The notes under the pieces are model-generated. The model did not search any database. It was not told where the DNA came from and saw only the letters and a program-made list of their open reading frames with translations. From a virus: a stretch of DNA of 64,000 nucleotides. Position 1 is the stretch's first letter. Each line of letters begins with the position of its first letter. Made by a program: the position numbers and the translations under genes. Below are positions 30,904-54,497 of this stretch, one piece after another. The stretch is taken from IMG/VR virus record IMGVR_UViG_3300028783_000001, positions 96,001-160,000 of that record. One strand, 5' to 3'.

Positions 30904-31866
30904 TCACTTAAGGGTATTGGCATCTTCGTTTCTAGATGTCATATAGCGAGCCCACTCGCGCTCCAACGGTGGATTTGATCCAGAAAACTCCACGACGCCG
31001 TAGGTGTTGCGCTTTAGATCGCGATGCGGGTCGAAGTCGTATTTCAAGAACATTCCCCAGCGAGCATTGTAACCACGATCAACCTTGCGACCGTGAAATG
31101 GGTGGTCAATGAGCTCGTCCACAAAGCCAATCTTCTTGTTGACCTGCGCACAGGCGCGCTCCTGCCAGGTCATAACTGCATCGTGGTAATTTTTATTCGT
31201 TCCAGGTGGCATGGACATCTCGGCGTCGCCTATTAGCCCAAGAGCCATGTGATGGTCTCCCGCACCTACACCACCGATGTCAAATAGCCCACCAATCATG
31301 TCTAGGATGCTTCGTAGCCAGCCCCATGCAAATCCGGGATGCGGATAGTCGTAGGGGCTGTTGGTCAACTGTAGCGTCTTGGTGTCAAACGTTGGAACTA
31401 CCGGATGACCAGCGTGATACTGAGATGCAAAGCTCTTGTAGCTGGCAAGCAGCTCGTTGTTTGGCCCGAGATCGTGTACGACGCTCCATGGCTGAACCAC
31501 GGGGTAGAGATCTAATGCATGGATTGTCTTGGTCGCCCAACCAGCGTTGCGCCACTTGATATCGGCGTCGGCGGTAACGATGTGCTGCGCGTCGTGAGGC
31601 AATCGGTTAATACCAAGAGTCATCAACGATTCCTTGCACCACGCCTGAGTGGTGGCTTTAACCTGAACGTAGTTTACACGCTCATGTGCGCCAAGATCGG
31701 CTAGCTCATACTCACGAGATCCGTGCGCGCATTCGACTAGCGTAACTCGGACGTTTGGCTCTCGCAGCCATGACTGGACTGCTTCACGAGCTAGGCGGAT
31801 GCGGCTCTCCCACCCAACGGGATTTGATACGACGGTGACGACATCTAAGATACAGTGGCTTGACAT
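30904..31866 (-). CDS. GT-A fold glycosyltransferase
   Basis: Likely start ATG 31866; VTLVECA, WCKESLM..G, DADI (DxD motif), HPGFAW, GGLFD..GAGD. Confidence 0.7.
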   Translation of the reverse strand: MSSHCILDVVTVVSNPVGWESRIRLAREAVQSWLREPNVRVTLVECAHGSREYELADLGAHERVNYVQVKATTQAWCKESLMTLGINRLPHDAQHIVTADADIKWRNAGWATKTIHALDLYPVVQPWSVVHDLGPNNELLASYKSFASQYHAGHPVVPTFDTKTLQLTNSPYDYPHPGFAWGWLRSILDMIGGLFDIGGVGAGDHHMALGLIGDAEMSMPPGTNKNYHDAVMTWQERACAQVNKKIGFVDELIDHPFHGRKVDRGYNARWGMFLKYDFDPHRDLKRNTYGVVEFSGSNPPLEREWARYMTSRNEDANTLK

Positions 31867-31892
31867 GCGGATTGCCCTTCTGACTAGGAATG

Positions 31893-32948
31893 CTACACGG
31901 GAAGGCCAGTAGCCAAGGCTAACTGGTATTTGTCCATCTTGATCCATTCAAGTGGAAGCTTAATGCGATGACCCTTTTGATTGTACAAGTGTATTATGAA
32001 GCGAAAGCCCTTCTTGATACACTGTCGCGCCTTAGCTTGATTCTTCTCTAGCAGATGTTCTCCAAAGAACGATCCATCGACGTCGCGATTTAGCCCCATT
32101 GTAGCAACGCCTTTGACCTCTATGATCGTGTTCCTTGACTTGATATAGAAGTCTGGTGTATAGGTCCGCCAGGTTCCCTCAAACTTGTAACGTATCTTGG
32201 GAATCTCAGCATCATGTGCAGTGACTATATCATAGAGTGGGAATCGTTCGGCGAGCTTACGCAGCGTTATTGGCTCGTGCCCCTGACACGTAAACGTCTC
32301 GCCACCTACCTCGACCTTCTTGTTGATACAGAATACGACGGGGAAGCATTTCGGGCACCTATTTAAGCCGGCAGTAAGTGACCTTGAACTTCCTTCGTAA
32401 TCGTAGCCGCACTTATGCCTGATCATTATCCTACGCACATGACCATTCTCATTTTTAATTAGACTTGTAACTTGGTAATTGTCGCTTCCGTGAACTTTGT
32501 TAACATCAGTTTGAATACCATCAATAGTGAGTTTTCCTGCACTACCAGACCCGTTGCAGTAAGGGCAACCCCTTGTTAGGTTAAATGAGTCGCGCGTTGT
32601 CCTAAACGTCTGGTCGCACGCTACATGTCTATAGGTACACTTCGACCCCTTACCTTTGACGAACCTTACTAGCTCGAAGTCGTGTCCGCGCGCGTCCAGT
32701 ATTTCTGCTCGGTGCATCTCCGGCGTCACTACCATGACGCGCTTGTGTTCACAGGGACAGTGGGCTGTGGGATTCTTGCGCATCAAATTCTCTATGCGCA
32801 CCTTGAACTCGTTTCCGCAGTTATGTCTGACTATGCGATAGCCGTCGGCTCCTACGTTGCCAACTATAATATATGTGCCTCTGCCGCGTTTGTCGTCAAG
32901 TGCGGCCTGAAGCTGGTTATTGGTACGTGGTTTTGGTCCGGTCTTCAT
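31893..32948 (-). CDS. Free-standing homing endonuclease-like protein: Zn-ribbon repeats plus PD-(D/E)xK domain
   Basis: Three H.C...CPxC repeats; C-terminal YTPDFYI..IIEVKG. Confidence 0.8.
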   Translation of the reverse strand: MKTGPKPRTNNQLQAALDDKRGRGTYIIVGNVGADGYRIVRHNCGNEFKVRIENLMRKNPTAHCPCEHKRVMVVTPEMHRAEILDARGHDFELVRFVKGKGSKCTYRHVACDQTFRTTRDSFNLTRGCPYCNGSGSAGKLTIDGIQTDVNKVHGSDNYQVTSLIKNENGHVRRIMIRHKCGYDYEGSSRSLTAGLNRCPKCFPVVFCINKKVEVGGETFTCQGHEPITLRKLAERFPLYDIVTAHDAEIPKIRYKFEGTWRTYTPDFYIKSRNTIIEVKGVATMGLNRDVDGSFFGEHLLEKNQAKARQCIKKGFRFIIHLYNQKGHRIKLPLEWIKMDKYQLALATGLPV

Positions 32949-33020: not shown

Positions 33021-34115
33021 CTAGACGCGCATGAACTTTACAACTGACCGACTGTTCGCGACCGTCTGTGTCAATAATTCGTGAAAAAACCAACCGCGAG
33101 CAGGGATGCCATCGGGATAGGTGTCGATTGGCTTGCTGTTGACTGGACCACGATCGGTGAAGACGCCGTGGTTGACCGGGCTGGACAGGATGTAGCCCGT
33201 GTTCGATGCAACAACGCGCTGCATTGGATCGCGGAAGCCGTCGGTGGTAATGCCCATTCCGAGCAGCGTGCCGAGGAAGCCAGTCTGGACCAACTCGTAA
33301 CGTGTGACGGGATCGAACAGGTTGCCGAAGGCAGCTGCGTTGCCTGCGATGTCCGTCCAGAAGTCGGCGGCCAGGAGCAGGTTCTCGGCCGGCAGACCCC
33401 AGGTGAGGATCGCGGTGCGAGCAGCGGCGAGGTTTGAAGGAGTCATGCCGCCGGAGAGCAGGAACATTGGATTGGAAGCACCAACGCTCTTGTCGAGTAG
33501 ATTGAGATAGGAGCGATCTTCCTGGACGTTGATCTGCTCGATTGCGCGAGCATAGGTGTCGTCCATGATATCCGCAGCGCCTTGGGCAATATCACGCTCT
33601 TCAACGCGAACGTTGCCGAGGATGTAAAACTCTGGCGGATAGAGATATTTCTGGTTGACAATCTGTGGCTGCACGGTAATTGGCGAGGTAGCGACAATTG
33701 CCTGCACGTTTTGGAAGCGAAGCTGCACGCGTGGGATAGCCCCGTTTTGCAGTTCACCCTTCTCCATGAAGCGGCGCATGAAGCCCTCACGCGTTGCGGT
33801 CTCATAGAGAACCGCTCCGATGGTGGCTCCAGTTTCCGCCCACGACGCGGTGGTATGGTCGTAGTAGGAGTCCATGAGCAGCTGAGTGCGGTCTGACGCA
33901 CTCATCGTAGCCGTTTCAGCAACGTCTGGATCAACAAACTTGACGCGGCCGCTAGCGACTTCAGCCATCAGCGTGGCGAAGCTCTGCATGGCTTCGACGT
34001 TGCTGCCGGCGTTCATCTCACCGTTCCCGCCGAACCAGCGCTCGTTTGAGCCTGGACGACGCGATGCTAGGGCCGGTGTCGCCCCACCAGATTTCTTCAT
34101 GATATTGATAGTCAT
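33021..34115 (-). CDS. Major capsid protein (HK97 fold)
   Basis: 364 aa after scaffold and decoration genes; REGFMRR, YLYPPEF, IN.QEDR, TGFLGTLLG..ITTD, RGWF motifs. Confidence 0.8.
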   Translation of the reverse strand: MTINIMKKSGGATPALASRRPGSNERWFGGNGEMNAGSNVEAMQSFATLMAEVASGRVKFVDPDVAETATMSASDRTQLLMDSYYDHTTASWAETGATIGAVLYETATREGFMRRFMEKGELQNGAIPRVQLRFQNVQAIVATSPITVQPQIVNQKYLYPPEFYILGNVRVEERDIAQGAADIMDDTYARAIEQINVQEDRSYLNLLDKSVGASNPMFLLSGGMTPSNLAAARTAILTWGLPAENLLLAADFWTDIAGNAAAFGNLFDPVTRYELVQTGFLGTLLGMGITTDGFRDPMQRVVASNTGYILSSPVNHGVFTDRGPVNSKPIDTYPDGIPARGWFFHELLTQTVANSRSVVKFMRV

Positions 34116-37400: not shown

Positions 37401-37970
37401 ATGAGAGTGATGGGCATCGACCCTGGAGTCACAAACTTTGCAGTCGTCGTAATTGACGGTCACGACGTCGTGTATGCACGGATGATACAAAACACGATCC
37501 ATTCTATGGCTCGTGCGTGTTACGAGGAGCGTGCATTGCATAGGGATTCCATGCGCAAGCTCATGAAACATACGCGTCCCGATGTGTTATTGTTGGAACA
37601 GTTTGCCGTCCGTGGATTCGGCACGCAGCTTACGGAGGTCATAAATATAATGATCGGTGGAATACAGATGCTGTGTGATTCTGAAGGAGTTGCCGAGAAT
37701 GCTGTTATGGCATCTACGTGGAAGAAGTGCTTCAAGCAGATCGGTGACCTAGATGCGCTCTACTCCCACGCCAAGCTGCTAAACATGGAGCACCACGTAG
37801 TGGACGCTCTTTGCATAGCCTTCTTTATGAAAAACAACTTTGGATTCATAAAGGCGGACTGGAGACGGATAAAGAAGGGTTTGGAGGTATGCCGCATGTG
37901 GCTACTGAAAAATTCGGTTACGCATGTGAGGATTCCCAAGCCTAAGAAAAAGAAGGCGCGCGCGAAGTGA
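37401..37970 (+). CDS. RuvC-like Holliday junction resolvase
   Basis: MRVMGIDPG..NFA, PDVLLLEQF, ASTWKK, HVVDALCIA. Confidence 0.85.
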   Translation: MRVMGIDPGVTNFAVVVIDGHDVVYARMIQNTIHSMARACYEERALHRDSMRKLMKHTRPDVLLLEQFAVRGFGTQLTEVINIMIGGIQMLCDSEGVAENAVMASTWKKCFKQIGDLDALYSHAKLLNMEHHVVDALCIAFFMKNNFGFIKADWRRIKKGLEVCRMWLLKNSVTHVRIPKPKKKKARAK

Positions 37971-38425
37971 AGTGCTTAGTAGAGCCCTTGATGGAGGTTG
38001 GTGATCCCTGTAGCATATCTAGCTGCTGGATGCACAACTCCCGCGCACTTGGCAACTGCATGATTCACGACAGTGGTCATACGGAGATTACCAAGTTTGA
38101 CATAGCACGGATAAACGGCATCAAAGAGCGCGCCGCTCAGGAGATGGTGGATGCTGGAAAGGACAAGCTGGCACTGTGGCTCAAGCTAGTAGACGCGGCC
38201 GAGTGCATCCCGTTGGGTAGTGGATGCGGAAAATGTGGCCGGGTCAATTGCGCTGGGGATGGAACCTGCCAGCGCGTCGAGAATAAAATTGTTGAAATAT
38301 CAAAACGAACACCGTTGGCGGACGTCGTGGAGATGAACGCCGAGAAGTGGCGTGGTTTGATGACAGACCACGCATTGCTACTGCAGCAGGTGCTGCGAAT
38401 GTTGGAGAGACCAGATGGTAAATGA
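37967..38425 (+). CDS. Cys-rich hypothetical protein with possible HTH
   Basis: Several Cys clusters; ITKFDIARINGI segment; overlaps neighbours at start and stop. Confidence 0.55.
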   Translation: MKCLVEPLMEVGDPCSISSCWMHNSRALGNCMIHDSGHTEITKFDIARINGIKERAAQEMVDAGKDKLALWLKLVDAAECIPLGSGCGKCGRVNCAGDGTCQRVENKIVEISKRTPLADVVEMNAEKWRGLMTDHALLLQQVLRMLERPDGK

Positions 38426-39101
38426 TACACGAGATCGTTCGGTTGCTACGAAGCATGGTCAGGGACCTGGTGCACGGCCCATTAGCGGCAAGACTCGCAT
38501 GCGCCTTGCAGACTTGGAGCTGGAAGATAGCAACAGTGTCTATGTAATGACCAAGGCAACTAAGCTGATGGGCGTTCCATCACACGTGCTATTGCCGCAC
38601 AAGTCCACGCAGGGTGGCGAGACATTCGTCATTGAGATTCCAATGACGTTTGTTCCAATCGACCTAGCTGCCTATGCACCGAAGGCAGAGCTACTACGCA
38701 ACCCCGACCTCATGCGACAGCTGAACAATGGTGTTCTCATATTGATGAGTTCAGAAGACGCCGAGCATGCACTCGACAACGACACTGCAATGCATGAGAT
38801 CGACCGCCTACAGGCCGTGCGTCAGGCCAAGCTAGTGCATACGCCGAACCACGTCGAGGACGACATGGCGTTCCGCGCCATGCATCCAGACGCTCAGGTT
38901 CCACGTGGAGCACCAGGTGAGCTTAATGTTGAGACGGCCAATGTTCAGACACCCGTGGTTGACATCATGGAGAACAAGGACTACAGCGACGATGACCGCC
39001 TTGTCATGCTTCGTAACCTGCTAGACATCATGACCGACGTCGACAAGCGCTATGTTCGTAGCAAGACGCGCGACGCTCGCATTCTTGCGATTGTGGGTTA
39101 G
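38415..39101 (+). CDS. Hypothetical protein
   Basis: 228 aa ORF, GGAG RBS. Confidence 0.7.
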   Translation: MVNDTRDRSVATKHGQGPGARPISGKTRMRLADLELEDSNSVYVMTKATKLMGVPSHVLLPHKSTQGGETFVIEIPMTFVPIDLAAYAPKAELLRNPDLMRQLNNGVLILMSSEDAEHALDNDTAMHEIDRLQAVRQAKLVHTPNHVEDDMAFRAMHPDAQVPRGAPGELNVETANVQTPVVDIMENKDYSDDDRLVMLRNLLDIMTDVDKRYVRSKTRDARILAIVG

Positions 39102-39103
39102 TA

Positions 39104-40036
39104 ATGGCTGACAAGAGCTACCCACCATGGGATCACATCTCCGTATTGGTTGATAGCGCTGACGACATAGAGGGATTCTACCGGCACAAACACAACCTGT
39201 TGCCGGTAAAAACCCCCGCGACTATTGTTGCACCATTCAAGGAAAGAAGCGTCGCGGACATATACCTCGCGATGCAGCGCGGCCTAAAGAAAACTTTGAA
39301 AGGAGAAGACATGTCAAATACAGACGTGATGGAAGAAGAGTTTAGGGAGCGAGCAGAGTGGCTCGACCGCCAGGTTGCCGCAGACATGCGCCCCGACGTG
39401 ATTCCAATTCTCGACGACGGGCGCAGTCCAAACGCGCAGATTGTCACGGGCAGGAGTAAGTTTGATACTATCAGCGATAATGATTTATCAGCGATGGTTA
39501 CTGCTGCCAAGAATCGGCGCGGCAATCCACCAGAACCTGCGACAACGCTACTCGACCAAGCAATGAAGTGGATACACGAGTGGCTAGGAGAAAAGATTGA
39601 ATCGCGAAATGTAGCACGTCACGAGGATGCCGTACGTGACTTCGTCATTGCGTCTATGACTGATGAGAAATTAACACTAACTGCACGTAGTGCAATCTTA
39701 GAGCTATCGGCGTTTGGCGCATGGGTAGAGAGTCGGTTTGGACAGCGACATTCTGCTACCGACCTGTATCACGGTGACTACTTCGTGTCCAGTACAGATT
39801 CTGTAACCGAGGTCATACACATTCGTATATGGATGGAGTTTAAGCGTACAACTCGTGAAGCATACAACGAGGGCCAATGGAACGTTGGTAGCTACATGTA
39901 TGGAGTCGGTAGCGGCATCGTAGGTTTGCGGCAGCGCCTTCGCAATCTTCCTCCGCTCTATGGACGTCCTAAAATATTCAACGAGCATACATGTGCACCA
40001 GTAGCTTCAGACCCCAACGAATCAAGCGTAATGTAG
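39104..40036 (+). CDS. Hypothetical protein
   Basis: 310 aa ORF in the plus-strand operon. Confidence 0.7.
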   Translation: MADKSYPPWDHISVLVDSADDIEGFYRHKHNLLPVKTPATIVAPFKERSVADIYLAMQRGLKKTLKGEDMSNTDVMEEEFRERAEWLDRQVAADMRPDVIPILDDGRSPNAQIVTGRSKFDTISDNDLSAMVTAAKNRRGNPPEPATTLLDQAMKWIHEWLGEKIESRNVARHEDAVRDFVIASMTDEKLTLTARSAILELSAFGAWVESRFGQRHSATDLYHGDYFVSSTDSVTEVIHIRIWMEFKRTTREAYNEGQWNVGSYMYGVGSGIVGLRQRLRNLPPLYGRPKIFNEHTCAPVASDPNESSVM

Positions 40037-40044
40037 GAGCAACT

Positions 40045-40704
40045 ATGTTTGGATTTGACAAGGCCCTCCAGTTACTGAAGGCTGGAAACCTCGTTCATAG
40101 GTCAGGGAAGTGGGACGACGACGAGTTTATCTACCTAGTCAGAGGTGGGAGCTTCATCGTTAACCGCGCACCGCTGCTGGGGATCTTCCCCAGTGGCACT
40201 ATCTGCACGTACAAGAGTCGTATAGATCGCAACGACGGTAACGGAACCCTCAGTGGTGCTGGGCTAACCGACGACGACCTACTCGCAGAGGACTGGGAGA
40301 TGACCGACGTCATGGACCGCGCGTTTATTGACCACGTCACGAAGACAGACCACGCACCCTTACCAATAGATACCGATACCGACGGGCCATTGACTTGGCC
40401 ACTCAATCTGATAAGCGATGAGCAATGCGTGGTCATTACCGACTTTAGCTTGGGCGGAATTACCAGCGCGCAAGACGACTTTGCTGTCAAGTATGGTTCT
40501 ATCGCAAGCTACATTGCAATTGGCTACAGTGATATAGCTGAGTGGGCCGAGAGCATTCCCGACTACGGCGATCACCTGGTAACAGGGACATCAGCATCTA
40601 TCATAGAGCACGGGTACCTCGGTCGGCTGCAAGGACGGGTAGCATGTACTGATGCCTACTTGCGGCCACAGCTCAGGTTCATCGAACGCAGCTTCGTCTG
40701 CTAA
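40045..40704 (+). CDS. DUF2829 / Tad2-like domain fused to a capsid-protein-like segment
   Basis: Start ATG 40045 (AGGAG). N-domain F..AL..LK.G..V.R.G.W...FIYLV...DLLAEDW; C-domain aligns without gaps to the capsid protein of this window. Confidence 0.75.
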   Translation: MFGFDKALQLLKAGNLVHRSGKWDDDEFIYLVRGGSFIVNRAPLLGIFPSGTICTYKSRIDRNDGNGTLSGAGLTDDDLLAEDWEMTDVMDRAFIDHVTKTDHAPLPIDTDTDGPLTWPLNLISDEQCVVITDFSLGGITSAQDDFAVKYGSIASYIAIGYSDIAEWAESIPDYGDHLVTGTSASIIEHGYLGRLQGRVACTDAYLRPQLRFIERSFVC

Positions 40705-40715
40705 GTGAGGTAGTA

Positions 40716-40979
40716 ATGATCAGAAGAATTGTTACTTGCAAAGGCCCACGATACTCTGGGGCGGACCTCGACGTAGCCTTCCAGCTATTCCGAGATGGGC
40801 TAGTATGTGACGGCAGCCTCGCTAGCAAGGCGAGTCGTAACTACCTAGTTGATGAGGGTTATGCCGTTCGTAAGAGCGGTTATCAAGCACTGACGGGAAA
40901 AGGCACGATTGCATTCCTAACGCATCCACGCGTTTGGCTCTACTTGTTCCGGCGTTGGAAACGTAGCTGGTGGTGTTGA
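40716..40979 (+). CDS. Hypothetical protein (possible winged helix)
   Basis: 87 aa, GAGG RBS; LVDEGYA...ALTGKG pattern. Confidence 0.55.
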   Translation: MIRRIVTCKGPRYSGADLDVAFQLFRDGLVCDGSLASKASRNYLVDEGYAVRKSGYQALTGKGTIAFLTHPRVWLYLFRRWKRSWWC

Positions 40980-41350
40980 TCATGAATGAATGGCAGGTAA
41001 TTCAGCACTGGCAGGGTGTGGTCGATGAAGTCGATATGGAGACAGGGCTCTACTACGCCGAACTGGTAGACATCACAGCAGGCCATACGCGGGCTTCAGA
41101 GCGAGTGTATGGTCTAGCAATCTCAATGCTCGATGAATGTGAACGCAAGTTTGTCGTTGTGGGAGGGATCTTCGACTGGACGATTAGCCGGCGAGATGCG
41201 CAGTTGCGCGACTCGGTTGGTGAAATTATTCCAGGGGTCGACGAGACGAAGGGTGAAATCGTGTTTCGCAAGGAACGCTGGTCGAAAGCTGATCTTGAGG
41301 CAGGACGCATTGAAGCCGAGAGACTGTTTGATGCGATTAAGTTTGAATAG
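40970..41350 (+). CDS. Hypothetical protein
   Basis: 126 aa ORF ending before the terminator. Confidence 0.6.
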   Translation: MVLIMNEWQVIQHWQGVVDEVDMETGLYYAELVDITAGHTRASERVYGLAISMLDECERKFVVVGGIFDWTISRRDAQLRDSVGEIIPGVDETKGEIVFRKERWSKADLEAGRIEAERLFDAIKFE

Positions 41351-41408: not shown

Positions 41409-41484
41409 TGGAGCGGGCAGCGCGACTCGAACGCGCGACATCTGACTTGGAAGGACAGTGCTCTACCAACTGAGCTATACCCGC
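41409..41484 (-). tRNA. tRNA-Gly (TCC)
   Basis: GCGGGTATAGCTCAGTTGGTAGAGC..CTTCCAA..GTTCGAGTC..CCCGCTCCA, 76 nt, encoded CCA. Confidence 0.95.
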
Positions 41485-42779: not shown

Positions 42780-44807
42780 TTACCACTGATCATATTTCCC
42801 AGGAGTGTGCACCCACTTCGGCGGAGGTGATCCTGGCTTCACTGGCTTCGGTGCAGCCTTGGGAGGTGCTTTCGCGGCTGGCTTCACATGCTTCGGCAAT
42901 GGTTGCATGGAAGGTCCGCGATTGTGACCGATACCGGGGGCCTTAGCCGTTGGCTTCTGTGCTGGTTTGGCTGCTGGTTTGAGTGGGGCTACCTGCACAG
43001 GCATGGGCTGCTTGTCCATCTCTGGCTCAGGCATCGTATGACTAGGGACGCCGCCAGGACCACTTGGATAAACGTCTCCACCGCCGCGCGGCACCCAACC
43101 AGGAACTTTCAGCTTTCGCTTTCTAAACGGCGCGGCCATTATGTGCGGAAGGATGTACGACGTGATGGCAGTCGAGCCCGTCGTCTTGTCACCAGATACG
43201 TGGCCGAGCAATCCGCCAACGTTTATGGCGAGCCCCTTGATGATCTTGGACATGTCCGCACGGCTGGCCGTTTTCGGGATGTTGGCATCCTTGATCAGCT
43301 TCTCCATCATATTGCTTCCGCGAATGTTGCGGAGATTGTGGGCTGTGATCGGGATGTGAAGCTTCTTGAACCAAACGTTTATGACGCCGTTTGAAATACG
43401 TTTGCCGTTTACGACCCACGCATACTCGTCGCCCTTGCGCCCGCTAACTACGCGGTGGATAACCGCAATGACACGCTTTGCAATGTTGTTGGTGGGACTT
43501 ATCTGATGGGCCTGTAGCTTATGATCCTTGCCAGGATACGTCAACAGATAGCCACCGCTGCGTGGCTTGATCTGGTTGACCTGGAGCGTCGTTAGCCCAA
43601 ACGTATCCTCACCCTTCGTCGAGTTGCCGGGATTTCCTGCACGGCAGGCGTAGGTGTAGAGGATTTCCATCATTGCGCCGACGGTCTGCTGGAAGCGGTC
43701 CTTGGAGTTTAGCAAGGCAATCCACTTGTCGCGCATCGGCGGAACGACGTGACGCGCGTGCTCAATCTTCGCGTCCTTGTTGCCCTTGTTTGCCTGCAGC
43801 TTGCCTTCGGTGTATGCCTTGCCCTCATCCTTGGCCACCGATCCTGGGACGCGATACCAGAAAATGATTCCGTTGTCCTTCTTAGGATCGTAGCTTTCAC
43901 CTACAACATGTCCCGACGGGAGGACCGTTCCTTTAACGCGCCAATATATTGCCGAACCTGGCATTGGCATGACGTTGATACGCTTGCCTGCGCTTGTATA
44001 GAGACGGCAGTCCTCTCCAACGAATAGTCGGCCAAACGACTTGAGTGCAGGAGCATCAATGTGAGCCTTCGCCAGCGCCTGGAGAACCAGGTCGATCTTC
44101 ATCGGCTTGCCGGCACCGGCTGGATTCTTACGCACGAGCATGCGCACATAAGTCTTCCAGCTATTGGTTATGTTGCCCTCGACCTGAACCAGACGCTTGT
44201 GAACGTTTGGCTTCTTTTCTTTCAACGCGACCCGCTGCTCTGGGGTTAGAACCAGTCCCGGCTTGCCCGTCACCTGCTTGATTATATGCTTCAACTCTTC
44301 GACGTGTTGCTGCTGGTCGGGAATCTTCTCTGGGCAGAACATCGACTTGATGAAGGTATCTGGGAGAATCGCGAGCTTCGTGTCCAGCGCCTTCTCTTTG
44401 GCGTCGACGCGCTCTGCGGTCGGTGTGAACATTCCGAGGATGAGATTAGCAAGTTTACCCTCTGGCTCTGGGACGCTGGTGCTCTCCAAAAAAGTCTTCA
44501 GCGCCTTGGGCTTCGGGAACCTACCCATCGAAATCTTCGCCGCATACATCAGCTCGGCGTAGGCCGTCGTGGGCATCCCATTCTTGCCGCGCGCCTTGTT
44601 CGCCCCGATCATCGTGATGATCTTCTTGAACTGAGCGCTCGCTTCCTTACCACCAACCAACTTGATTACTTGGATCGCTGCCGATAGCTGCCCCTGCATA
44701 TGATGGGCGAGGGCCTTGCTGTTCAAGTTGCGACGATAGGCTACTACAGTTCCGGCCATCAGAGATAGCCACGCTGCCAACGCCTTTTCATCCACCTGTG
44801 ATGCCAT
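42780..44807 (-). CDS. DNA topoisomerase IB (bacterial/poxvirus type) with long N-terminal extension and Pro/Lys-rich tail
   Basis: Catalytic motifs CRAGN...TFGLTTL, YPGKD, TAHNLRN, LLGH...AITSYI. Confidence 0.8.
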   Translation of the reverse strand: MASQVDEKALAAWLSLMAGTVVAYRRNLNSKALAHHMQGQLSAAIQVIKLVGGKEASAQFKKIITMIGANKARGKNGMPTTAYAELMYAAKISMGRFPKPKALKTFLESTSVPEPEGKLANLILGMFTPTAERVDAKEKALDTKLAILPDTFIKSMFCPEKIPDQQQHVEELKHIIKQVTGKPGLVLTPEQRVALKEKKPNVHKRLVQVEGNITNSWKTYVRMLVRKNPAGAGKPMKIDLVLQALAKAHIDAPALKSFGRLFVGEDCRLYTSAGKRINVMPMPGSAIYWRVKGTVLPSGHVVGESYDPKKDNGIIFWYRVPGSVAKDEGKAYTEGKLQANKGNKDAKIEHARHVVPPMRDKWIALLNSKDRFQQTVGAMMEILYTYACRAGNPGNSTKGEDTFGLTTLQVNQIKPRSGGYLLTYPGKDHKLQAHQISPTNNIAKRVIAVIHRVVSGRKGDEYAWVVNGKRISNGVINVWFKKLHIPITAHNLRNIRGSNMMEKLIKDANIPKTASRADMSKIIKGLAINVGGLLGHVSGDKTTGSTAITSYILPHIMAAPFRKRKLKVPGWVPRGGGDVYPSGPGGVPSHTMPEPEMDKQPMPVQVAPLKPAAKPAQKPTAKAPGIGHNRGPSMQPLPKHVKPAAKAPPKAAPKPVKPGSPPPKWVHTPGKYDQW

Positions 44808-54420: not shown

Positions 54421-54497
54421 TGGTCTGAGCAGCAGGATTCGAACCTACGACCTCCTCATTCCGAATGAGGCACGCTACCAGGCTGCGCTATGCTCAG
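54421..54497 (-). tRNA. tRNA-Pro (CGG)
   Basis: CTGAGCATAGCGCAGCCTGGTAGCG..CCTCA-TTCGGAA-TGAGG..GGTTCGAATCC..GCTCAGACCA, 77 nt. Confidence 0.95.

Follow-up and report, generated by a model that had tools for sequence, protein, structure and literature searches.

A gene of a jumbo myovirus joining a Tad2-like domain to a probable fragment of the capsid protein of its own clade

Why would a phage join what looks like a piece of its own capsid protein to a relative of an immune-signal sponge? The question is raised by a single gene in a 64,000-nucleotide stretch of viral DNA (hereafter the window), which corresponds to bases 96001–160000 of the 168.7-kb IMG/VR virus record IMGVR_UViG_3300028783_000001, a record judged 66% complete. 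The source of the window is a jumbo myovirus, and tail sheath, tube-region, head and replication genes are all present in it. The gene in question (40045–40704, + strand) encodes a protein of 219 aa, here called P0001, and is very probably a genuine gene of the expressed type that codes for an accessory protein of two domains, in which Tad2-like residues 1–86 are followed by residues 87–219 derived from the capsid protein of the phage's own clade. The reading that we favour, to which we assign a probability of roughly 40%, is that P0001 is an anti-defence protein whose capsid-derived module would engage a capsid-recognising partner.

The reading frame runs from an ATG at 40045 to a TAA at 40702–40704, exactly as given in an initial annotation made from the sequence alone, and the same 219-aa product was found in independent gene calls on the ENA and JGI contigs. 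A ribosome-binding site, AGGAG, was read from the sequence at 40035–40039 (+), 5 nt upstream of the ATG, and the ATG itself lies eight bases past the stop (TAG, 40034–40036) of an upstream open reading frame (ORF) of 310 aa. Codon usage scored highest in frame 1 in each third of the gene and the ortholog described below is one open frame; the idea that the C-terminal half could be non-coding, frameshifted or a separate gene was thus rejected. A scan for promoters and terminators gave fewer sites than were found in shuffled sequences.

The major capsid protein of the phage (P0002, 364 aa) is encoded at 33021–34115 on the − strand and belongs to the HK97 fold (phrog_2522, E 2.5e-65). Its counterparts in Pseudomonas phage PaBG, Ralstonia phiRSL1, Burkholderia BcepSaruman and Erwinia/Dickeya jumbo phages share 32–39% identity with it. 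An AlphaFold2 (AF2) model of P0002 showed an HK97 fold with a predicted local distance difference test (pLDDT) score of 84, and a Foldseek search with this model gave 313 PDB matches at E ≤ 0.001, with HK97-fold capsids on top; among solved structures, 6wkk (Gp27 major capsid protein) is nearest in sequence.

The initial annotation had pointed to a 62-aa stretch of P0001 (Y150–R211, 40492–40677, +) with 14 identities to the capsid in an ungapped alignment. The count is correct, and the stretch lies inside a longer core of homology (residues 141–216, 40465–40692, +) that aligns without gaps to capsid residues 230–305, with 15 identities in 76 columns. As a raw pairwise comparison, the match between the C-terminal domain and the capsid is no better than chance: BLASTP of the pair alone gave 23.5 bits and an E-value of 0.004, and in a search of 208 ORFs from the window (read stop to stop) the capsid (E 0.097) was tied with an unrelated ORF (E 0.081). 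A phmmer search of residues 88–219 against 1.84 billion representatives returned the domain itself alone. The available models of P0001, from AF2 and from the ESM Atlas (the latter with a pLDDT of 0.49, fold matches of at most TM 0.39 and none by features), are too low in confidence to give structural confirmation. All of this is what would be expected if the resemblance to the capsid were due to chance or convergence and the C-terminal half were an unrelated orphan domain. The similarity is significant only with profiles and with the ortholog, P0125, a 212-aa Tad2-like protein of a sister phage, and the results obtained with these make an origin by chance very improbable.

Using hhalign, a capsid profile (alignment A1, 55 sequences) was matched to the C-terminal domain (residues 88–219) at P 3.4e-5 with a score of 38.1, while 100 shuffles of the domain had a mean score of 13.9 (standard deviation 2.7, maximum 23.7) and the reversed sequence scored 15.0. 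An HMMER capsid profile searched against the 208 window ORFs found the fusion ORF as its sole non-self match (E 0.0026; next 0.42). The phage's own capsid ranks 14th of the 55 sequences along the alignment with the C-terminal domain, and the match is therefore to the capsid family and not to a lucky single sequence. The C-terminal domain of P0125 fits the capsid profile better than that of P0001, although P0125 had been found by synteny (P 4e-6 over 104 columns, capsid 197–303), and its alignment extends into the spine helix as far as V-x-E-D-R. When the two C-terminal domains were combined into one profile, the hhalign match to the capsid profile rose to P 9.8e-7 with a probability of 91%.

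The reciprocal searches were made with an HMMER profile of the same two C-terminal domains (A3). Among the window ORFs it found the phage's own capsid alone (E 2.4e-7; next 1.9), again ungapped over 76 columns, and in a six-frame search of the 168.7-kb record it found the fusion gene itself and the capsid, and nothing else. Among 935 ORFs of seven related loci it found 7/7 capsids (E 4.8e-8 to 2.7e-5; next 2.3), and in the complete 258-kb PaBG genome its sole match lay inside the capsid gene (E 3.2e-6). The best reversed decoy had an E-value of 3.2. The capsid-specific matches thus run in both directions and recur in four target sets, while the shuffled and reversed controls are clean, as is a control with a real protein, the partner domain of a Tad2-like fusion from PaBG (P 0.31 against the capsid profile). 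Of 120 capsid homologs, 66 were matched by A3 at E < 1e-3 (nominal database size of 1000), and the scores drop with distance from the phage's own capsid, from a mean of 25 bits for the nearest ten to 13 for the farthest (rho −0.61), a fall-off that fits an origin from the capsid gene of this clade.

A language-model search also returned capsids, in that the clusters closest to the ESM features of the P0125 C-terminal domain (0.88–0.90) were those of encapsulins and of GP7-type, P2-type, SU10 and crAss capsids; this is to be taken as a lead only. The A3 profile gave nothing meaningful against the PDB, and residues 95–219 matched no Pfam family even at E ≤ 10, including PF13876 (Acb4) and PF21825 (Sequestin). 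In PHROG, residues 107–148 (40363–40488) were matched to positions 409–450 of the 534 of phrog_20655, annotated 'major head protein' (E 0.28); this match is too weak to use, and it agrees in direction with a capsid origin. Given the profile matches in both directions and a signal that rises when the ortholog is added, we regard the homology between the C-terminal domain and the capsid as real with high confidence. The composition proposed in the initial annotation, a Tad2-like domain joined to a piece of the phage's own capsid, is thereby borne out by Pfam, the reciprocal profiles and the ortholog, and the piece is closer to the capsids of its own clade than to distant ones.

The capsid-derived domain as a whole (residues 87–219, 40303–40701, +) is collinear with capsid residues ~182–309, encoded at 33189–33572 (−), with the core 230–305 at 33201–33428. 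In the capsid model, residues 183–210 form the long spine helix, and the core comprises the end of a helix (226–237), a strand (243–248), two helices (252–263 and 272–278) and a hairpin (280–291). By its position in the chain the core would correspond to the A-domain, as the initial annotation had guessed, with domain borders inferred from the model. The full segment would then take in the spine helix, at least in part, and the A-domain over its first two thirds, where the extension beyond the core is the weaker part: under relaxed hhalign settings (low mact) the whole C-terminal domain is collinear with capsid 182–311, pairing D-V-M-D with D-I-M-D at the start of the helix and G-G-x-T with the region of the invariant G222, while confidence in the alignment is low over the first ~50 residues of the domain, where there is a Pro-rich insertion.

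The best-kept part is a motif at G190–F212 (40612–40680, +), G-[YF]-[LM]-G-R-L-x-G-x(4)-T-D-A-[YF]-x-x-P-x-x-R-F, defined from the capsid-column and ortholog alignments. It corresponds to the β-hairpin of the capsid (strands 280–284 and 287–291) and the following turn, with capsid G279, G282, G286, D292 and P297. The C-terminal domain thereby keeps the G-x-x-G-x-x-x-G-x(5)-D hairpin motif that is invariant in the HK97-fold capsids of the PaBG/phiRSL1/phage G group (phrog_2522; 6wkk), and it differs from them in representing only a third of the fold. The domain lacks counterparts of the N-arm, the E-loop, the P-domain strands and the last A-domain strands, and therefore cannot be a shell subunit; with only residues ~182–309 of 364 represented, a complete HK97 fold was not found. 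By its sequence, the C-terminal half is a capsid-derived domain and not a capsid protein.

How this domain has evolved since its origin is best seen by comparison with the sister phage. Relatives were reached by walking out from capsid homologs in metagenomes, and the closest is contig L012, with a capsid 86% identical to P0002. This contig carries P0125 directly after a gene of phrog_17686, in the same position as the fusion. The two proteins share 29% identity over 214 residues (E 1e-17) with both halves in common, and their C-terminal domains are ~31% identical, with the capsid-like motif as the best-conserved part. No other gene of the syntenic block has diverged as far as the fusion (29% identity versus 41–86% for its neighbours); between the two phages, the other head-side genes are 56–64%, the resolvase 50%, p152 41% and p228 60% identical. 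The capsid stretch from which the domain was copied differs at just 4 of 76 positions. The fusion is thus an accessory gene that evolves far faster than both its neighbours and its structural parent.

This contrast in tempo bears directly on what the domain might bind. One candidate is the phage's own capsid or procapsid, in which case the C-terminal domain could tether the Tad2-like domain to the head as a decoration or as packaged cargo for the next infection, or could cap free monomers and so regulate assembly or hide them from sensors. In HK97-fold capsids the A-domain and spine region makes intra-capsomer contacts. Homology to the part of the capsid protein that packs around the capsomer axis, namely the A-domain core and possibly part of the spine helix, would suit such a role, as would the distance of 6 kb between the head gene cluster and the fusion gene, which belongs to a divergent block. 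A partner as conserved as the copied capsid stretch should, however, keep its binder more nearly constant, and the two C-terminal domains are far from constant. Because the capsid stretch is frozen while the copy diverges fast, the selective partner appears not to be the capsid itself. It is mainly for this reason that we place capsid binding, in all these variants taken together, below the favoured reading and consider it improbable. Were the C-terminal domain nonetheless to bind capsid protein, it would show how accessory domains get targeted to heads.

A capsid-derived fragment in an accessory slot that evolves fast could also be a weapon between phages, acting as a dominant-negative fragment that poisons the heads of related co-infecting phages or satellites and to which the own capsid is insensitive. 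Direct support for this is lacking and the Tad2-like domain would be left unexplained; moreover, the copied stretch is highly conserved among the capsids of the clade, which would make discrimination between self and non-self hard. We regard such a weapon as highly improbable. The engagement of a capsid-recognising host partner, our favoured reading, would involve the N-terminal half of P0001 as well.

This half (residues 1–86, 40045–40302, +) is assigned by Pfam and by alignment to solved Tad2 chains. PF11195 (DUF2829), already named for the first ~85 aa in the initial annotation, matches residues 4–86 well above the cut-off (36.2 bits against 25, E 8.8e-9, profile positions 3–72 of 73), and a six-frame search of the phage record gave a Tad2-like match at 37.7 bits. 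The domain aligns end to end with the solved chains 8v3e, 9eib and 8sme, and shares 48% identity with P0124, a canonical Tad2-like protein of the stand-alone type. Its nearest phage relatives are stand-alone DUF2829 proteins (44–48% identity) and gp163 of PaBG (45%). Compared with the characterized Tad2 proteins (SPO1 Gp34.65; HgmTad2/AcrIIA7; MoTad2), the N-terminal 86 residues span the whole length of the solved 88–90-aa proteins, with a short insertion type nearer to SPO1 Tad2 than to HgmTad2. P0001 differs from them in both ligand motifs and in its extra 133-aa domain.

At the first motif (R19-S-G-K-W-D-D-D-E27, 40099–40125, +), the Trp of canonical G-W-N-G-K can be aligned, and the Asn and Gly are both Asp, so that W-N-G has become W-D-D. 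The second (G71-A-G-L-T-D-D-D-L-L-A-E-D-W84, 40255–40296, +) corresponds to canonical W-x-P-S-x-x-D-x-L-A-E-D-W, of which the last Asp and LAEDW are retained; Trp and Pro are gone, and Ser is replaced by Thr. Two positions that contact phosphate in Tad2 are Asp in P0001. The ortholog has W-P-A-R at the first motif and a retained W-F-P-T-Y-D-D at the second. Neither contact motif of P0001 thus corresponds to that of Tad2, and the N-terminal half is for this reason called Tad2-like and not a Tad2 sponge. The initial annotation had likewise cautioned that these segments, KWDDD and AGLTDDD, were altered; both were recovered in the alignments.

If the pocket has degenerated, the C-terminal domain may have taken over the activity. 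This is one argument for regarding the C-terminal half as an exapted domain with a role unrelated to capsid recognition, either as a second sponge or binding domain for small molecules or as an oligomerisation or stability module. Its low identity to the capsid, concentrated at structural Gly, Asp and Pro, would agree with this, as would the known Tad2 fusions, which join two sponge domains (10.1101/2025.07.12.664507). On the other side, the C-terminal domain lacks any match to PF13876, PF21825 or another Pfam family at the threshold given above, and we know of no HK97 A-domain that binds nucleotides. The domain is also acidic, with an isoelectric point of 4.3, whereas positively charged pockets are the sponge hallmark for which the pipeline of Tal et al. 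screens (10.1101/2025.07.12.664507). On balance, a role of this kind is rather unlikely in our view.

The favoured reading can be put together as follows. In the literature consulted, all tested functions of Tad2-family members are anti-defence sponging of diverse ligands, and the pockets of the family have been re-tuned to histidine-ADP-ribose (His-ADPR), N7-cyclic ADP-ribose (N7-cADPR), cyclic UMP and CMP (cUMP/cCMP) and cyclic dinucleotides, with no target identified for about a quarter of the tested homologs (10.1101/2025.08.24.671296). Since the canonical contacts for glycocyclic ADP-ribose (gcADPR) are replaced in P0001 (W-N-G by W-D-D, with the second Trp lost), its Tad2-like domain may bind a different signal or have oligomerisation, as a scaffold, for its main role. 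The Tad2 structures solved so far are tetrameric (10.1101/2023.11.15.567273), and by analogy the Tad2-like domain probably tetramerises in the same way, which would put several copies of the capsid-derived domain on display. These copies could then recognise a rapidly evolving host protein whose usual cue is freshly synthesised capsid, for instance an immune sensor set off by the capsid, and act as a non-activating decoy or competitor. Thoeris is triggered by capsid proteins, and mutations in the capsid allow escape from several other defence systems (PMC12578639, PMC13728456). The strongest form of the proposal, that P0001, with its copy of the core of a protein that many bacterial immune sensors take as their trigger, is a self-derived, multivalent and non-activating trigger mimic that blinds capsid-sensing immunity and represents a new counter-defence principle, is on the doubtful side.

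Several observations weigh against the favoured reading. In HgmTad2, gcADPR is contacted by W21/N22/G23 and by W87/S90/T92/D93, and mutating either group kills binding (10.1101/2023.11.15.567273); W21/N22/G23 and W87 correspond to acidic or small residues in P0001, and because the contact residues are replaced, canonical gcADPR binding and sponge activity at the canonical site are doubtful. The only mapped interaction between Thoeris and a capsid is that of ThsB1 and ThsB2, which use the capsid E-loop and P-loop (PMC12578639), and the C-terminal domain has neither loop. The domain is ~20–25% identical to the capsid, mainly at Gly, Asp and Pro residues that look fold-determining, from which mimicry of the capsid surface does not follow. 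The AF2 model of P0001, made from the single sequence with no alignment, has a pLDDT of 29 and is unusable. The last 70 codons of the gene have a weaker codon-usage score (−0.09 versus +0.2 to +0.27 elsewhere). The family consists of two known members, P0001 and P0125, and no selection test is possible because the contigs that carry P0001 are identical in DNA: eight contigs carry the exact protein, and three representative loci that were retrieved are identical over the gene and the compared flanks.

Further members were sought in several ways. Word-index searches with the whole of P0001 and with residues 1–92 found nothing else, and no related loci were found in viral and metagenome contigs searched with P0001 and with A3. 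The hairpin motif, written as a degenerate DNA pattern, gave no match in viral and metagenome collections, nor did tblastn of the P0125 C-terminal domain against 50,697 phage records. The contigs of two further capsid relatives (P0005 and P0009) stop short of the slot.

In the literature searched, we found no description of Tad2 fused to a capsid fragment, of a capsid-derived origin for any anti-defence module, or of a self-derived decoy of the trigger as a phage counter-defence. Tad2 is often fused to a second anti-defence module, and the closest parallels are Tad2-Acb4 of Pasteurella phage Pm86 and Tad2-Sequestin (PF21825), which likewise combine Tad2 and a second module in one polypeptide in phages and mobile elements (10.1101/2025.07.12.664507). 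The partners in those fusions are sponge families, whereas the partner in P0001 matches neither of them and derives from a structural virion protein. Anti-defence factors that bind proteins and thereby block recognition of the trigger or compete with it, such as DSAD1 against DSR2 (PMC11087589) and Tad3–Tad6, which bind ThsB (PMC13728456), would be possible analogies if the decoy reading is right; going by the descriptions available in those sources, they differ in not being presented as trigger-derived.

Duplicated capsid genes have been put to new use elsewhere, as in the T4 vertex protein gp24 and the capsid-redirecting Ccm of phage-inducible chromosomal islands (PICI), which are complete subunits that still build shells. 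The C-terminal domain of P0001, by contrast, represents only an inner part of the subunit and is joined to a domain unrelated to it. Should it engage a capsid sensor, it would be the first trigger-derived decoy, and would offer a handle on which part of the capsid such sensors read. Either way, whether its partner is a sensor or the capsid, it is a documented exaptation of a capsid fragment, and the A3 profile can be used to mine for further cases; new sponge families have already been discovered by way of the partners to which Tad2 is fused.

Within the same Tad2-like subclade, the closest multi-domain protein is gp163 of PaBG (YP_008433492, phrog_1048-type; L006:1060–1710, 216 aa), which is 45% identical in the Tad2-like domain and shares the block F-x-V-N-R-A-P-L-L-G-I-F-P. 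Like P0001, it combines a Tad2-like domain (47.4 bits) with a second domain of ~130 aa, comes from a jumbo phage with a related capsid and deviates at the first motif (W-E-N-D). It differs in that the order is reversed, with the Tad2-like domain C-terminal and an unrelated 130-aa N-terminal domain, and in that it is not syntenic with the fusion. The possibility that its partner is the same capsid piece in the other order was rejected on the P of 0.31 mentioned above and on the absence of similarity to the C-terminal domain of P0001. Multi-domain Tad2-like proteins with altered pockets may be a feature of this jumbo-phage group.

The fusion gene belongs to a tightly packed rightward block (37401–41350, +), divergent from the head genes, that consists of genes for a RuvC-like resolvase, p152, the phrog_17686 protein, p310, the fusion, p87 and p126. 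The module from the resolvase to the phrog_17686 gene is conserved in relatives, and the content after it varies: L012 has the fusion alone, L010 a 170-aa orphan, L011 two small orphans, and L002 and L015 nothing, so that in these last four, all of them more distant relatives, the slot lacks the fusion gene. The 310-aa ORF between the phrog_17686 gene and the fusion (39104–40036, +) has no Pfam or PHROG family and is absent from L012, and is therefore a further recent insertion in the same slot. The variable slot is bordered by a 675-aa protein (42780–44807, −) with a eukaryote-type topoisomerase I domain (PF01028), which is conserved in all relatives examined (L002, L011 and L015).

Two tRNA genes were found in the region, a tRNA-Gly(UCC) at 41409–41484 (−) and a tRNA-Pro(CGG) at 54421–54497 (−). 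The former is 91–97% identical to tRNA-Gly of Klebsiella and Pseudomonas jumbo phages and is the only nucleotide-level match of the region to known phage.

Directly downstream of the capsid gene (30904–32948, −) lie an HNH endonuclease gene (31893–32948; phrog_559, E 3e-18) and a 347-aa orphan. The corresponding spot in relatives holds DUF7487 proteins in L010 and L013 and nothing in L002, L011 and L014. The site adjoining the capsid gene thus looks like an insertion hotspot for mobile nucleases, and one might speculate that such a hotspot promoted the duplication of the capsid fragment. In L011 (positions 1–44), the gene upstream of the topoisomerase-side block has intein-splicing and LAGLIDADG matches in Pfam, which again points to an abundance of mobile elements in this group of phages.

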